A stretch of 28,103 nt of DNA from a virus (Duplodnaviria; Heunggongvirae; Uroviricota; Caudoviricetes): the IMG/VR virus record IMGVR_UViG_2529292905_000015. One strand, 5' to 3'. Below, piece by piece: positions 1,087-8,776 of the stretch. The translations under genes were made by a program, and so were the position numbers. Under the pieces are notes generated by a model. It worked only from the letters and a program-made list of their open reading frames with translations. It searched no databases and was not told the origin of the DNA. Each line of letters begins with the position of its first letter. The first letter of the stretch is position 1.

Positions 1087-1413
1087 ATGACTAAAAATAC
1101 ACGTTTTTCCCCCGAGGTCCGTCAACGGGCAGTTCGTATGGTTCTGGAAAGTCAGGGCGAATATGACTCACAATGGGCGGCAATTTGTTCCATTGCCCCA
1201 AAGATTGGCTGTACGCCAGAGACTCTGCGTGTGTGGGTTCGTCAGCATGAGCGGGATACCGGGAGTGGTGATGGTGGATTCACCACCGCTGAACGTCAGC
1301 GTCTGAAAGAGCTGGAACGTGAAAATCGTGAACTGCGCCGCAGTAACGATATCCTTCGCCAGGCTTCCGCTTATTTTGCGAAGGCGGAGTTCGACCGCCT
1401 CTGGAAAAAATAA
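1087..1413 (+). CDS. IS629 transposase OrfA (helix-turn-helix DNA-binding subunit)
   Basis: 108 aa, [30 protein letters not shown]..., matches remembered IS629/IS1203 OrfA; ends in an A-run followed by TAATG that overlaps the OrfB start. Confidence 0.9.
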
Positions 1414-2300
1414 TGCCACTGCTGGATAAGCTGCGTGAGCAGTACGGGGTCGGACCGGTATGCAGTGAACTGCATATTGCCCCGTCAACGTATTACCACT
1501 GTCAGCAACAGCGACATCATCCTGATAAACGCAGTGCCCGTGCGCAGCGCGATGACTGGCTGAAGAGAGAGATACAGCGCGTATACGATGAAAATCATCA
1601 GGTGTACGGTGTGCGTAAAGTCTGGCGCCAGTTGTTACGCGAAGGTATCAGGGTGGCCAGATGTACAGTGGCGCGCCTCATGGCGGTTATGGGACTTGCC
1701 GGTGTTCTCCGGGGTAAAAAGGTCCGTACTACCGTCAGCCGGAAAGCCGTTTCCGCAGGCGACCGCGTAAACCGTCAGTTCGTGGCAGAACGTCCTGACC
1801 AGCTGTGGGTGGCTGATTTTACTTACGTCAGCACATGGCAGGGCTTCGTCTATGTGGCGTTCATCATTGATGTGTTTGCCGGATGCATCGTGGGGTGGCG
1901 AGTCTCATCGTCTATGGAAACGACATTCGTGCTGGATGCACTGGAGCAGGCGTTGTGGGCCCGTCGGCCGTCCGGCACAGTCCATCACAGTGATAAAGGT
2001 TCTCAGTATGTATCACTGGCCTATACGGAGCGACTAAAAGAAGCAAAACTGCTGGCATCAACAGGGAGTACAGGTGACTCGTATGACAACGCGATGGCGG
2101 AGAGCATCAATGGTCTTTACAAAGCGGAGGTAATACACCGTAAGAGCTGGAAAAACCGTGCAGAAGTGGAACTGGCCACACTCACGTGGGTGGACTGGTA
2201 TAACAATCGACGATTGCTGGGAAGGCTGGGTCATATCCCTCCGGCAGAAGCAGAAAAAGCTTATTATGCTTCCATCAGAAACGATGATCTGGCAGCCTGA
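1413..2300 (+). CDS. IS629 transposase OrfB (DDE catalytic subunit), in the -1 frame relative to OrfA; normally made as an OrfAB fusion by frameshifting
   Basis: 295 aa with an integrase-core DDE-type sequence (…WVADFTYV…HSDKGSQY…YDNAMAES…); the frame relationship to OrfA is typical of IS3-family elements. Confidence 0.9.
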   Translation: MPLLDKLREQYGVGPVCSELHIAPSTYYHCQQQRHHPDKRSARAQRDDWLKREIQRVYDENHQVYGVRKVWRQLLREGIRVARCTVARLMAVMGLAGVLRGKKVRTTVSRKAVSAGDRVNRQFVAERPDQLWVADFTYVSTWQGFVYVAFIIDVFAGCIVGWRVSSSMETTFVLDALEQALWARRPSGTVHHSDKGSQYVSLAYTERLKEAKLLASTGSTGDSYDNAMAESINGLYKAEVIHRKSWKNRAEVELATLTWVDWYNNRRLLGRLGHIPPAEAEKAYYASIRNDDLAA

Positions 2301-3770: not shown

Positions 3771-4432
3771 ATATCTACGAAAGAATTGATGGCAGCAAAT
3801 ACCGAAATATTTGGGTAGTTGGCGATCTGCACGGATGCTACACGAACCTGATGAAAAAACTGGAGACGATAGGATTCGACACCAAAAAAGACCTGCTTAT
3901 CTCGGTGGGCGATTTGGTTGATCGCGGTACAGAGAACGTAGAATGCCTGGAATTAATCACATTCCCCTGGTTCAGAGCTGTACGTGGAAACCATGAGCAA
4001 ATGATGATTGATGGCTTATCAGAGCGTGGAAACGTCAATCACTGGCTGCTTAATGGCGGTGGCTGGTTCTTTAATCTCGATTACGACAAAGAAATTCTGG
4101 CTAAAGCTCTTGCCCATAAAGCAGATGAACTTCCGTTAATCATCGAACTGGTGAGTAAAGGAAAAAAATATGTCATCTGCCACGCCGATTATCCTTGTGA
4201 TAAATACGAGTTTGGAAAGCCAGTTGATCATCAGCAGGTAATCTGGAACCGCGAACGAATCAGCAACTCACAAGACGGGATCGTGAAAGAAATCAAAGGC
4301 GCGGACACGTTCATCTTTGGTCATACGCCAGCAGTGAAACCACTCAAATTTGCCAACCAGATGTATATCGATACTGGCGCAGTGTTCTGCGGAAACCTCA
4401 CATTGATTCAGGTACAGGGAGAAGGCGCATGA
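3767..4432 (+). CDS. ninI: NinI-type serine/threonine protein phosphatase (PPP family)
   Basis: GDLHGCY and GNHE metallophosphatase motifs; near-identical to remembered lambda NinI (221 aa); ATGA overlap with ninG; GAGG Shine-Dalgarno upstream. ninC, ninD and ninH are absent. Confidence 0.9.
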
Positions 4433-4643: not shown

Positions 4644-5603
4644 TTAAAAAAAGAAGGTGATTGCTCCATTTATAAATGAATAGTCATCCCCTGTCTTGAA
4701 TTCTGATGTTACTTTATTAAATGCTAGTGTGAAGGCTACAGGTGCATACCCAATTGTTGCGCCAACTTGATATTCATCAACAGTTTTGTTTAGCGATACT
4801 GTTGTTTGTTTCGTCTGTATTGTTTTTCCTTCGAGAGTATAGTTGCGATTGACATCTCGTCTTTCCATACCTGCAAAAATCTTGTATTTGAATCCGCTTG
4901 TATCGGACATATGCATTAAACCACGGGGAGCCAGCAGACCAAAGCCATTATCCGAATTGAAGGTTTTATCATTACCAATGGCAATGGTTGCGCCATATGC
5001 TACATATTGAAATAAGTTTCCAGTAACAGCAGAAACTTCAGGGTATAATCCAACATTAGCACCTAAAATATCCATACTTGGTGTCATGGATAGCATCCCT
5101 TTTACAGTATAACCGTAGCGATTCTCTATTTGATCATCCCATGCATGATATTTTTCTGCCCCAATAATCTCATGAGCTTTATTTTGTACTTTCTGACCGC
5201 CTGCGTCGGGGCCAACAACACCTATGTCAGTACCTAATCGATAGCGAATCCAGTCATTCGCAAGGGAGTTCCATTCAATACCAGTGTGAGTGTATGCACT
5301 AAAAGCTCTGTCTCCAGTTACAGCTGTGTTGTGTCTTTTATTACTGCCTGATGGAGAGTAAATATCTTGCGCAATATGGAGAGATAATTGGCTCGAGTCT
5401 GAGATATCGTGGCTATATCCCAGAAATAAGCCTTGTGAGTAATCATCTCTGTTTTCATGTTTATTGCCATAAATATCATTAAGTATTGGTTGAAACTTCC
5501 CTGCATCATCATTTGCTAATGATAATGCAAGGCTGTTCGCGATAGCTGAACACGTGGTAAATGACAGAGCAATAAAGACGCCAGCGATGACACTTTTTTT
5601 CAT
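4644..5603 (-). CDS. Outer-membrane beta-barrel protein, cargo gene; tentatively LpxR-like lipid A 3'-O-deacylase
   Basis: 319 aa; N-terminal signal peptide MKKSVIAGVFIALSFTTCSA; alternating amphipathic segments; C-terminal aromatic FFF typical of a beta-barrel signature; AT-rich with atypical codon usage; antisense to the flanking phage genes. Size and position recall the prophage-borne LpxR of EHEC, but this is from memory, not a sequence match. Confidence 0.7.
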   Translation of the reverse strand: MKKSVIAGVFIALSFTTCSAIANSLALSLANDDAGKFQPILNDIYGNKHENRDDYSQGLFLGYSHDISDSSQLSLHIAQDIYSPSGSNKRHNTAVTGDRAFSAYTHTGIEWNSLANDWIRYRLGTDIGVVGPDAGGQKVQNKAHEIIGAEKYHAWDDQIENRYGYTVKGMLSMTPSMDILGANVGLYPEVSAVTGNLFQYVAYGATIAIGNDKTFNSDNGFGLLAPRGLMHMSDTSGFKYKIFAGMERRDVNRNYTLEGKTIQTKQTTVSLNKTVDEYQVGATIGYAPVAFTLAFNKVTSEFKTGDDYSFINGAITFFF

Positions 5604-5993: not shown

Positions 5994-6767
5994 GTGCTTA
6001 TGTCGTTTCCCCGATTCGGTTTTGAACGATTACCGAATGTTGAAGAATTATGCCAAAATATAGAAAGGATTTACTGCATGAATACCCAATATTTACAGTA
6101 TGTTCGTGAGCAACTTATGGCAGCTACTGCTGACTTGAACGGAGCAACGAAAGGCCAGCTCGAAGCCTGGCAGGAGCATGCACAATTTGATACTGGTACA
6201 TACAAACGAAAGAAGCCGCGCATTCTGGATGTGGTAACTGGCAAGATGATTACGCTGGATAATACGCCGACTTCCGGTAAGCAGTCGTACGCAAAAGGTT
6301 CATCCATTGCTTTGGTCAGCCCGGTTGAATTCTCAACCTCTTCATGGCGCCGCGCGGTTTTGTCTCTCGATGAACATCAGAAAGCATGGTTGCTTTGGTG
6401 TTACAGCGAAAGCGTTCGATGGGGGCATCAGGTCACCATAACGCAATGGGCATGGAGCGAGTTTAAAGATTTGTTAAGTAACAGAAAAATTGCAGGTAAG
6501 ACACTGGATCGCCTGAAGACGTTAATCTGGCTGGCTGCACAGGATGTGAAGAGCGAACTTGCAGGGCGTGAGGCCTATGAATACCAGACACTGGCATCAT
6601 TGGTGGGAGTGACAACAAAAAACTGGTCCGAGACATTTACTGAACGCTGGGTTGCAATGAAGCACATTTTTCTACAGCTTGATAGTGATGCTTTATTGCT
6701 TGTGACGAGAACACGTTCAAAACAAAAGGCAGCATTTTTACAGCAAAATATTGCAAAACTGGATTAA
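5994..6767 (+). CDS. Late-gene antiterminator Q, long form; probable true start at ATG 6078 (MNTQYLQYVREQL...)
   Basis: Sits between the nin region and the PR'-tR' unit and lysis genes; resembles the roughly 250-aa Q proteins of E. coli cryptic prophages (from memory); the track ORF begins on GTG at 5994; ATG 6078 has an AGGA motif about 8 nt upstream. Confidence 0.6.
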   Translation: MLMSFPRFGFERLPNVEELCQNIERIYCMNTQYLQYVREQLMAATADLNGATKGQLEAWQEHAQFDTGTYKRKKPRILDVVTGKMITLDNTPTSGKQSYAKGSSIALVSPVEFSTSSWRRAVLSLDEHQKAWLLWCYSESVRWGHQVTITQWAWSEFKDLLSNRKIAGKTLDRLKTLIWLAAQDVKSELAGREAYEYQTLASLVGVTTKNWSETFTERWVAMKHIFLQLDSDALLLVTRTRSKQKAAFLQQNIAKLD

Positions 6768-6779
6768 AAGCCATATACT
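6751..6779 (+). promoter_or_regulatory. PR'-like late promoter: -35 TTGCAA (6751-6756), 17-bp spacer, -10 TATACT (6774-6779); the Q-utilisation site is expected to overlap
   Basis: Sigma-70 consensus-like hexamers with ideal spacing, immediately after the Q stop and about 35 nt upstream of a strong terminator; a -10-like TATGTT lies in the initially transcribed region, as at lambdoid pause sites. Confidence 0.5.
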
Positions 6780-6814
6780 TCATGCAAATTTGGTATGTTG
6801 TAAAAAATGTATAA

Positions 6815-6839
6815 ACCCGCTGCCGAGTGGGTTTTTTTT
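6815..6839 (+). terminator. tR'-like intrinsic terminator: 7-bp stem ACCCGCU / AGUGGGU (one G-U pair), GCCG loop, then eight T
   Basis: Hairpin plus T8 read directly from the sequence, about 35 nt downstream of the PR'-like -10. Confidence 0.7.
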
Positions 6840-6936
6840 ATGCCCTGAGTTGTACTTGTACGGTAAACATGCTGGCTGCTATGTAATAGAGTTTTTTTAG
6901 CCTGTAACCTCTTGACGGCATTGAATTGCTTTTGTT

Positions 6937-7695
6937 ATGAGTTGTAAGCCAATGTTATCATCTTGTATTGGGGTGGTTATGAAGGATGGTGCGCTGCTCA
7001 GGAGTTCTTCACTTTTTATTGCCTACATGGGATGCCTTGGATGGGGGAGTGCTTATTTCTATGGATGGGGTACTTCTTTTTACTACGGCTTCCCATGGTG
7101 GATTGTAGGTGCAGGTGTTGATGATGTTGCCAGAAGTTTATTTTTTGCAGTTATCGTCATTGCTATATTTCTTATCGGTTGGGGTATTGGTGTTGTATTC
7201 TTTTTCGCAGTGAAAAGAAAACATTCTATGCAAGAGCTAAATGTATTTCGCCTTTATTTTGCTGTGGAATTATTGTTTGTGCCGGCAATTATTGAGTTTT
7301 CTATATTGAGACAGAAGATTCAGGTACCTCTTTTGCTACTGTCAGCAGCGATTGCGCTGGCGGTTACAATTTCGATAAGATCTTATGGGCGATTTTTATC
7401 GGTATCATGCTTCTATGATAAGCCATTTATAAAAAAACATTTTTTTGAGATTGTGATGATTGCTTTTGTGGCATATTTCTGGCTTTTTTCATTTCTGACA
7501 GGATATTACAAACCACAGTTTAAGAAAGAATATGAAATGATTAATTATAATGATGGTTGGTATTATGTTCTTGCTCGTTATGATAATTGTCTGGTTTTGT
7601 CTACTTCTTTCAATGCAGGTAGTAAAAGGTTTGTCATTTATCAATCAGCACAAGATAAGAATCTTCAGGTTGATATTGTAAGGACCAGAATTTAA
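6937..7695 (+). CDS. Polytopic inner-membrane protein of unknown function (moron between Q and the lysis cassette); start ambiguous (ATG 6937, 6952 or 6979)
   Basis: About 5 predicted hydrophobic helices, an aromatic/Gly-rich N-terminal segment (GWGSAYFYGWGTSFYYGFPWW) and a roughly 60-aa hydrophilic C-terminal tail; AT-rich; possible own promoter TTGACG (6912-6917) with TATGAG about 18 bp downstream. Confidence 0.65.
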   Translation: MSCKPMLSSCIGVVMKDGALLRSSSLFIAYMGCLGWGSAYFYGWGTSFYYGFPWWIVGAGVDDVARSLFFAVIVIAIFLIGWGIGVVFFFAVKRKHSMQELNVFRLYFAVELLFVPAIIEFSILRQKIQVPLLLLSAAIALAVTISIRSYGRFLSVSCFYDKPFIKKHFFEIVMIAFVAYFWLFSFLTGYYKPQFKKEYEMINYNDGWYYVLARYDNCLVLSTSFNAGSKRFVIYQSAQDKNLQVDIVRTRI

Positions 7696-8125
7696 TTGGC
7701 TGCATAAATAATATTTTAAGTTGCAAGTTGGCTATTCGTAGGAATAGAACCTTAGGCATGCTGAATGCGTTTCCTGAACATTGTTTTATAAACTGTGTCT
7801 GCTTGCTGTTGTGATCCTGCTTTTAGTGATGGTGATGATGGATTTCACCAGCAGGATAATGTTGGTACTGACTGATGGCGCTCTGGTCTGCGGCATTGTG
7901 GTATTGCTGTGGCCGATGATGAAAGAACAGAATGAATAATTCTTGACTTTTTTGTTTACTGTTTATTAAAAAATCAACCGCATGGTGAATCCTCCTTGGA
8001 GGGGCTAAATGATCGAGTTTTAAGGGCACGTAGCGAGTTCTGTTTGATCATTGCAGAACTTAGCGGGAGGCGCCATGCGTACATCACTAATGTTATTTCC
8101 TTCTATCATTTTCCTTGTGAGTTCT

Positions 8126-8152
8126 GGCTGCGCATGGCGCGGCCTTTTTTTT
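8126..8152 (+). terminator. Strong intrinsic terminator: GGCUGCGC-AUG-GCGCGGCC hairpin followed by eight T
   Basis: 8-bp GC-rich stem with one G-U pair and a T8 tract, read directly; lies downstream of the moron and upstream of the lysis cassette. Confidence 0.7.
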
Positions 8153-8328
8153 ATGACCTGCCACTGGCAGATGGTCATCCTGTGATTTGATTCCGGTTCC
8201 GGCTTTTTAACTCTGTTCCTGTACACGGGAGAAATTCTATGTCGATTAATCGTTATGATATTGGTTACAAGAAGTACCACGTATTGTGTTGAGATAGAAA
8301 GCATGGTGCCAGAGGTAAATGCAGCAGC

Positions 8329-8380
8329 ATAATAAAAAAGAGCCAGCGCAGAAGAGAACGGGTAAAAGAGTCTGCGCTGG
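8329..8380 (-). terminator. Minus-strand terminator-like element: perfect 10-bp inverted repeat (CCAGCGCAGA / TCTGCGCTGG) with an 18-nt loop, followed on the minus strand by CTCTTTTTTATT
   Basis: Read directly; the U-rich tail exists only on the minus strand; a consensus-like minus-strand promoter lies about 55-110 bp upstream of it (see findings). Confidence 0.5.
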
Positions 8381-8560
8381 CGTGGGGATATTCCCCGTGG
8401 AGAAATGATATGTAACACACATCGGGAACCTTTCTATATAAACATTATCATTATTGTCAATCATAACAGTCAGGTATTATGACGTTTATGCATCAGGGCC
8501 ATCAGGAATTAACTGGTGGCTTTTTATTGTTGTCAGCTTCCGGATAACGGGAGACGGGGT

Positions 8561-8776
8561 ATGTACCAGATGGAAAAAATAACAACAGGTGTGTCATACA
8601 CCACGTCAGCGGTGGGGACGGGATACTGGCTACTGCAGTTGCTGGACAAAGTCTCCCCATCCCAGTGGGTGGCAATAGGCGTATTGGGTAGCTTGGTGTT
8701 TGGCTTGCTGACGTATCTGACAAACCTTTATTTCAAGATTAAAGAAGATAAGCGTAAGGCTGCGAGAGGTGAATAA
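8561..8776 (+). CDS. S: Class II holin, phage 21 S-type pinholin, with a dual-start motif (MYQMEK)
   Basis: [66 protein letters not shown] closely resembles remembered S21; two transmembrane segments; stop overlaps the endolysin start. Confidence 0.85.

Follow-up and report, generated by a model that had tools for sequence, protein, structure and literature searches.

Genes and signals between Q and the holin

In the window (the whole stretch of DNA analysed here, 28,103 nucleotides), the antiterminator gene Q (PF06323; 5994-6767, plus strand; RefSeq start at 6078), whose product drives read-through of the late operon, is followed on the same strand by a gene for a polytopic membrane protein of 252 residues (6937-7695; PF27470 'TfpB', phrog_1521; RefSeq start at 6952), a spacer of 85 nt (7696-7780), a short open reading frame (7781-7939) and, farther downstream, the P21-type class II holin gene with which the lysis cassette starts (8561-8776, RefSeq bounds; PF04971, E-value 2e-32). 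The short frame, a full but orphaned tciB gene of the DUF3927 family, comprises 52 codons from a TTG start to a TAA stop; it was delimited using the ORF list, Pfam and PHROG matches, the family alignment and the gene bounds given by PGAP and in phage 434.

A consensus scan placed a promoter-like site (TTGCAA-17-TATACT; 6751-6779, plus strand) across the end of Q, and just past it lies an intrinsic terminator-like hairpin (6813-6834, plus strand), which the phage 434 annotation gives as a terminator. We regard the two as a candidate late promoter pR' and a tR'-like terminator, and the placement of the candidate promoter relative to Q and the terminator agrees with the annotation of phage 434. 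A strong terminator within about 35 nt of the promoter-like site (6751-6834, plus strand) is the expected Q82-type pR'/tR' layout, giving a very short transcript. Since tciB is located past this unit, about 1 kb downstream of it, its transcription should depend on Q antitermination. Between 7613 and 8306, the consensus scan detected nothing promoter-like on either strand, and a sequence scan for Rfam families found none in the tciB region.

Downstream of tciB, a terminator-like hairpin with a T-tract (8126-8152, plus strand), shared with the tciA-linked E. coli clade (clade 2), is followed by a remnant of a nanS-p-like gene (DUF1737/SASA esterase; 8239-8292, plus strand). Alignment to clade 2 and to one further locus (L004) shows it to be 17 codons long, MSINRYDIGYKKYHVLC and a stop. 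Phage 434 and many prophages have the nanS-p-like gene downstream of tciB, but it is cut to fewer than 50 codons in 40 of the 84 window-type loci.

Several other frames have been called in this downstream stretch. At 8075-8185, a 36-codon ORF (plus strand; MRTSLMLFPSIIFLVSSGCAWRGLFFMTCHWQMVIL), which encloses the terminator hairpin, has a Shine-Dalgarno sequence stronger than any other in the region (GGGAGG, −10.3 kcal). We considered it, with its lipobox-like SGC, as a conserved frame and rejected it: in the tciA-linked clade, the ATG following GGGAGG is in another frame. It is overlapped by 7996-8190 (plus strand), labelled 'putative membrane protein' in phage 434, a frame that is likewise without conservation in the tciA-linked clade. 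The region covered by these two ORFs is probably a non-coding leader with a terminator. On the minus strand, a hypothetical ORF of 132 residues (8020-8418; ECs_0817, WP_012578864.1) runs across the terminator and the nanS-p remnant; it has no NCBIfam or PHROG match and is likely a spurious call.

Positions 6901-8600 of the window match prophage Sp3 of E. coli O157:H7 Sakai exactly. The sequence-only reading, which had noticed part of the tciB frame, took it to be unannotated. This holds for the Sakai reference annotation, empty between ECs_0816 and ECs_0817, but not for PGAP/RefSeq, where 7781-7939 is named 'DUF3927 family protein' (WP_000499454.1), nor for phage 434, where a 98% identical gene is labelled TciB (CPT_434_69, UMO75333.1). 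The phage 434 protein and WP_000499454.1 represent essentially the same gene as the window copy (98-100% identical), and the setting in phage 434 is also like that of the window: a Q82-like Q, the PF27470 membrane protein and then tciB. The phage 434 module, however, runs into an intact SASA-family esterase (nanS-p), of which the window has the 17 codons described above. Judged by its sequence, the window ORF is an already known family member, catalogued as DUF3927/TciB. For the window, our result is mainly a correction: 7781-7939 should be annotated as DUF3927/TciB, and not as a new 36-residue toxin candidate.

Of 5,426 complete E. coli genomes, 696 carry the 601 bases around the ORF, mostly at identity of at least 99%; the genomes that carry them have a median of six copies. 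Scanning genome contigs turned up a single, nearly identical locus in a MAG; viral contigs scanned with P0118 likewise yielded one locus. In the literature searched, the name DUF3927 appears in one paper, only as a gene label beside a tellurite/colicin-resistance gene.

A 52-codon member of the DUF3927/TciB family

The frame initially proposed was a 36-codon one starting at a plus-strand ATG (7829-7939). The ORF list and the translation bear out its sequence, MVMMDFTSRIMLVLTDGALVCGIVVLLWPMMKEQNE, and its stop (TAA, 7937-7939). Its boundaries, on the other hand, have to be revised. The tciB frame is open from 7778, and its first possible start is TTG 7781, giving the 52-residue product MFYKLCLLAVVILLLVMVMMDFTSRIMLVLTDGALVCGIVVLLWPMMKEQNE; a start before 7781 is impossible, because a TGA in the same frame (7775-7777, plus strand) bounds the ORF upstream. 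The 36-codon frame corresponds to the C-terminal 36 residues of this product and leaves out its first hydrophobic segment. Because family alignments are gapless across residues 1-48, we take the 52-codon form to be the gene. The start column of the homologues, occupied by ATG or GTG, coincides with residue 1 of this form.

Length by itself says little about such a frame. The window contains 152 ATG-initiated ORFs of at least 36 residues, compared with 125 ± 9 in shuffled sequences, and the length of the 36-codon frame alone is within chance. Short ORFs as hydrophobic as this frame number three in the window versus 0.03 in shuffles. The reality of the ORF rests on its hydrophobicity and on its match to Pfam PF13064 (DUF3927), not on its length. 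This match scores 53.0 bits for the 52-residue form and 51.2 bits (E-value 1.2e-13) for the 36-residue form, with a cut-off of 25, and the shorter form covers only model positions 17-49. The ORF also matches PHROG 1470 'TciB-like' (E-value 2.5e-17).

No gaps interrupt the alignment of residues 1-48 of the 52-residue product with 34 family members, which include TciB of phage P1, the proteins of N4-like phages Pollock and TR2, those of Klebsiella and E. coli lambdoid phages, and metagenomic representatives. In this alignment D21 is invariant, S28 and D32 are nearly so, and the consensus reads MxxKxRL..LLxLVVxVDFTSxIMSVLADGVLV.G...LLWP..K. The window copy retains D21, D32, G33, W44, P45 and K48, and deviates at R6 (replaced by C) and S28 (replaced by L). 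Pairwise Nei-Gojobori dN/dS ratios among family members range from 0.02 to 0.4; dS is often saturated, while the protein can still be aligned. Going by these substitution patterns, the DUF3927/TciB family is protein-coding, and the initial suspicion that a gene for a small hydrophobic membrane protein lies here is borne out by its membership in a genuine family. A HMMER scan of 1.84 billion representative proteins gave 77 clusters, nearly all of 50-65 residues; the family is small but well defined.

Family members, of about 52 residues, are predicted to have two hydrophobic helical segments around a conserved acidic/polar core (D21-F-T-S ... S28 ... D32-G). Where the sequence-only reading had predicted a single transmembrane helix, hydropathy of the complete window product gives two hydrophobic segments, at about residues 5-20 and 33-47, with the polar core D-F-T-S-R between them. 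AF2 modeling with a 32-sequence alignment produced an all-helical model (pLDDT 88.5) consisting of one continuous helix without a turn. Because of this, the hairpin topology that we propose was drawn from charge, hydropathy and the prediction of two transmembrane helices for a paralogue: given the basic residues near the termini (K4/R6 and K48), we infer that TciB forms a hairpin in the inner membrane, its two termini being cytoplasmic. A profile search of the PDB with TciB gave nothing meaningful (best match BioY, E-value 0.22).

In E. albertii proteins with the window-type N-terminus (P0030, P0048, P0066, P0071 and P0072), DUF3927 contains in-frame tandem repeats, (GGWRLEA)1-3 and (CGIVGLWD)n. 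The repeats sit in the second helix and put charges into the expected membrane segment; they mark a VNTR-like hotspot or else indicate decay.

Coupling to tciA and its loss in the window type

To survey the genomic context of tciB, six-frame ORFs of about 310 loci (IMG/VR and GenBank phages) were searched with TciB and TciA HMMs, which yielded 316 TciB hits representing 91 distinct DNA alleles. Where the upstream sequence of a non-window allele is readable, a TciA ORF nearly always ends at −8 to +1 nt relative to the start of tciB, the typical overlap of tciA stop and tciB start being of the GTGA or ATGA type. The three exceptions are L136, in which a 1-nt indel fuses the two frames, and L134 and L208, which lack a complete or long enough upstream sequence. 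In L136, represented by one IMG/VR contig, the indel is a 1-nt deletion at the tciA/tciB overlap, and it results in a single long ORF (the site lies at about 3809-4201 of that locus).

TciA carries a TerB domain (PF05099, E-value 1.4e-16) and has a sub-threshold match to DUF533 (24.2 bits, cut-off 29.6). According to the notes of the P1 record, the TciB names in P1, which would imply resistance to tellurite or colicins and inhibited cell division, were given via the similarity of the neighbouring TciA to TerB. The surroundings of the tciA-tciB pair vary: in P1 it belongs to the C1-controlled ban operon and is followed by tciC, in N4-like phages it is part of the early/middle region, and Klebsiella and E. 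coli lambdoid phages have it between Q and the holin gene.

Window-type loci (84 loci, three DNA alleles) have no tciA upstream and are the sole clade without it among the surveyed loci. TerB and TciA HMMs gave no hit across the whole window. The place of tciA in other tciB loci is occupied here by the PF27470 gene, and the 85-nt spacer, which holds neither a Shine-Dalgarno sequence nor a promoter-like site, stands where the tciA stop and the tciB start would overlap. The window and its tciA-linked E. coli relatives are homologous from tciB codon 4 through the stop codon and the terminator to the first nanS-p codons; when residual tciA was sought in 7696-7780, the local alignment with clade 2 began only at tciB codon 4.

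P1 TciB (P1_gp075, YP_006541.1) has 54 residues versus 52 in the window copy and is 45% identical to it, without gaps over residues 1-48; the two share K4, the D-F-T-S core, D-G, W-P-x-x-K and both hydrophobic segments. In P1, however, tciB starts with an ATG overlapping the tciA stop, whereas in the window it starts with TTG after the 85-nt gap, has neither tciA nor tciC beside it and belongs to a Q-dependent late operon. XECs205, a DUF3927 paralogue in Sakai, represents the tciA-linked clade. It is 64-68% identical to the window protein over residues 2-48 and shares the downstream terminator and nanS-p leader homology with the window. Unlike the window copy, it has a GTG start within a GTGA overlap with the tciA stop and a Shine-Dalgarno energy of −6.4 kcal, and it keeps R6 and S28.

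Could the PF27470 protein have become a new partner? We inspected distant PF27470 homologues (45-68% identity) from other Enterobacteriaceae (loci L315-L321), and in the three contexts checked there was neither DUF3927 nor TerB nearby. Their neighbours are lpxR in Citrobacter rodentium, eltAB, encoding LT enterotoxin, on ETEC plasmids, and an sseJ-like Sif/GDSL-lipase gene in GCA_917067145.1. Because these distant homologues occur without DUF3927 or TerB, the PF27470-tciB junction is a mosaic joint and not a conserved pair. The suggestion that the ORF lies in the same cargo island as the membrane protein is right in that both fall within the accessory stretch that separates Q from the lysis genes, but the link between the two is a mosaic junction rather than conserved pairing. 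An lpxR gene is also present in the window, at 4644-5603.

Going by gene order, TciB would most likely serve as a membrane partner or anchor for TciA. The anchor model is the most economical one, since a soluble TerB protein is near-universally coupled to a small membrane peptide. In the ter operon, TerB pairs with the membrane protein TerC. TciA and TciB together would be a split version of membrane-tethered TerB proteins such as that of the Bunzi defence system, which exemplify TerB domains at work on the inner membrane. TerB reportedly associates with membranes, and transmembrane helices are present in the TerB protein of Bunzi (bioRxiv 10.1101/2022.05.11.491447). This is an analogy and not membership: TciB has no sequence similarity to TerC or to transmembrane regions of the Bunzi type, and no PADLOC match.

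The coupling of DUF3927 to a TerB-domain gene across very different phages, with the window clade excepted, provides a testable partner for an uncharacterised family. At the same time, the orphan copies in EHEC prophages amount to a natural experiment on partner loss.

State and probable fate of the orphan copy

The signals for translation initiation differ markedly between the window type and its tciA-linked relatives. The sequence-only reading had noted a weak Shine-Dalgarno sequence ahead of ATG 7829, and indeed the anti-Shine-Dalgarno duplex energy is +0.6 kcal there and +0.4 kcal at TTG 7781, whereas the median for the window is −2.8. The corresponding value in the tciA-linked E. coli clade is −6.4 kcal, to which coupling is added. 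Weak Shine-Dalgarno sequences occur also in other tciB genes (−3.1 kcal), and E. coli can initiate translation without one.

The protein sequence has changed as well. Of the 12 amino acid differences from the tciA-linked clade that can be polarised, 10 arose on the window branch (p = 0.039), and these include R6C, L16V and S28L, at sites conserved in all or nearly all outgroups. Despite these substitutions, the window copy keeps its overall hydrophobicity. The dN/dS ratio between the window type and clade 2 is 0.60, not significantly below 1, and the C-terminal tails of the two are a 2-nt indel apart. The frame is intact in 84 of 84 window-type loci, and both polymorphisms found there are synonymous. 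Together with the presence of the frame in distant phages, this speaks for coding, and the proposed check of frame conservation in relatives thus comes out for the frame and not against it. It says little about present function, because the copies are near-identical throughout and there has been little time for decay.

In a RIBOseq analysis of Sakai, the tciA-linked paralogue XECs205 was found to be translated (RCV 3.01 in LB) and was predicted to reside in the inner membrane with two transmembrane helices (Hücker et al. 2017, PMC5597208). The window-type ORF did not turn up in the tables of translated ORFs from the same study, whether sought by sequence or by position. Its absence carries little weight, since the genome holds several copies of the ORF and the late operon had not been induced in that work (PMC5597208). 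In P1, tciA, tciB and tciC were non-essential in a CRISPRi screen, and knock-down of tciB left plaque formation unaffected (PMC10695390); this was the sole experimental datum on TciB function that we found in the literature.

Taken together, we consider it probable that 7829-7939 is the 3' two-thirds of a 52-codon tciB gene that was orphaned by mosaic loss of tciA and is now most likely a poorly translated or untranslated passenger. In nearly every other clade, tciB would be translated by stop/start coupling behind soluble TciA, in lytic-phase operons. In prophages of the Sakai Sp3 type and in phage 434, mosaic recombination would have put the unrelated PF27470 gene in the place of tciA. The orphan would thereby have kept its frame, lost the coupled start along with any Shine-Dalgarno sequence, and gathered derived substitutions at otherwise invariant positions. 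It would ride passively on the Q-antiterminated late transcript and would not be a toxin. If made at all, orphan TciB would be expected to insert into the inner membrane and, at best, to pair in trans with TciA of a sibling prophage.

As the main alternative, a more active role may be entertained tentatively. Orphan TciB could be a functional inner-membrane protein, produced late from pR', that modifies the envelope either alone, with the PF27470 protein as the other half of a new accessory gene pair, or with TciA supplied in trans by sibling prophages. Such a role would fit the intact frames with exclusively synonymous polymorphisms and the retained hydrophobicity of the segment changed on the window branch. 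It would also fit the translation of the Sakai paralogue (PMC5597208), the constant association of the PF27470 gene with window-type tciB in the phage collection (434 and 2B8), and the makeup of O157 genomes, in which the median of six copies of the region includes tciA-linked ones. Against this stand the TTG start devoid of a Shine-Dalgarno sequence and of coupling, and the loss of R6, L16 and S28, otherwise invariant, together with the dN/dS ratio of 0.6 relative to the nearest clade. As for the PF27470 protein as a partner, its distant homologues are never found beside DUF3927, and the gene itself is broken in 14 of 82 window-type loci. The charged repeat insertions in helix 2 of the E. albertii proteins suggest decay as well.

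It is also conceivable, but unlikely, that TciA and TciB form a conserved lytic-phase membrane module directed at the envelope in P1-like, N4-like and lambdoid phages, and that the orphan has been re-wired to the PF27470 protein or to TciA provided in trans by sibling prophages in O157:H7. Were this the case, protecting the membrane of the infected cell and countering TerB-based surveillance (Bunzi, Shango) would be candidate functions of the module.

There is only a slim chance that the frame is not a gene here at all, with the DNA being kept as a late-transcript leader, a terminator and the region upstream of nanS-p, and the ORF being incidental. This idea draws on the flanking non-coding DNA (7940 to 8260), which is about as conserved with clade 2 as the ORF is, on the lack of initiation signals at the ORF, on the indel in the C-terminal tail between clades and on the missing entry in the Sakai RIBOseq list. 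On the other side, P1-like, N4-like and Klebsiella phages have conserved the protein, although the DNA of their ORFs is only 48-62% identical to the window and synonymous sites are saturated. This conservation, along with Pfam E-values of 1e-13 to 1e-14, rules out a chance origin of the ORF, so that only the present expression of this particular copy is in doubt.

The original proposal of a 36-residue single-pass peptide from ATG 7829, acting as a type I toxin-like membrane toxin (in the manner of Hok, Ldr, TisB or Ibs) or a regulatory peptide, is highly improbable: although it has an ATG start, a hydrophobic C-terminal part with a charged tail and a location near the lysis cassette, the ATG comes without a Shine-Dalgarno sequence, the conserved family protein takes in 16 residues upstream of it, Pfam, NCBIfam, PHROGs and PADLOC gave only DUF3927/TciB and no toxin, holin or defence family for the window ORF, no promoter-like site precedes the ORF, the conserved partner of the family is a TerB-domain protein and not an antitoxin RNA, and P1 plaques were indifferent to the tciB knock-down (PMC10695390). 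As to a holin in particular, the ORF does not stand at the head of the lysis cassette, and the P21-type holin gene of the prophage itself begins about 620 nt downstream of tciB, beyond the terminator.

Far upstream of this locus, the window contains an ALIL pseudoknot (1368-1484, plus strand; Rfam RF01497, 120.9 bits), the programmed-frameshift site of IS3-family elements, positioned between ORFs 1087-1413 and 1413-2300. An insertion sequence is thus present in the early region of the prophage.
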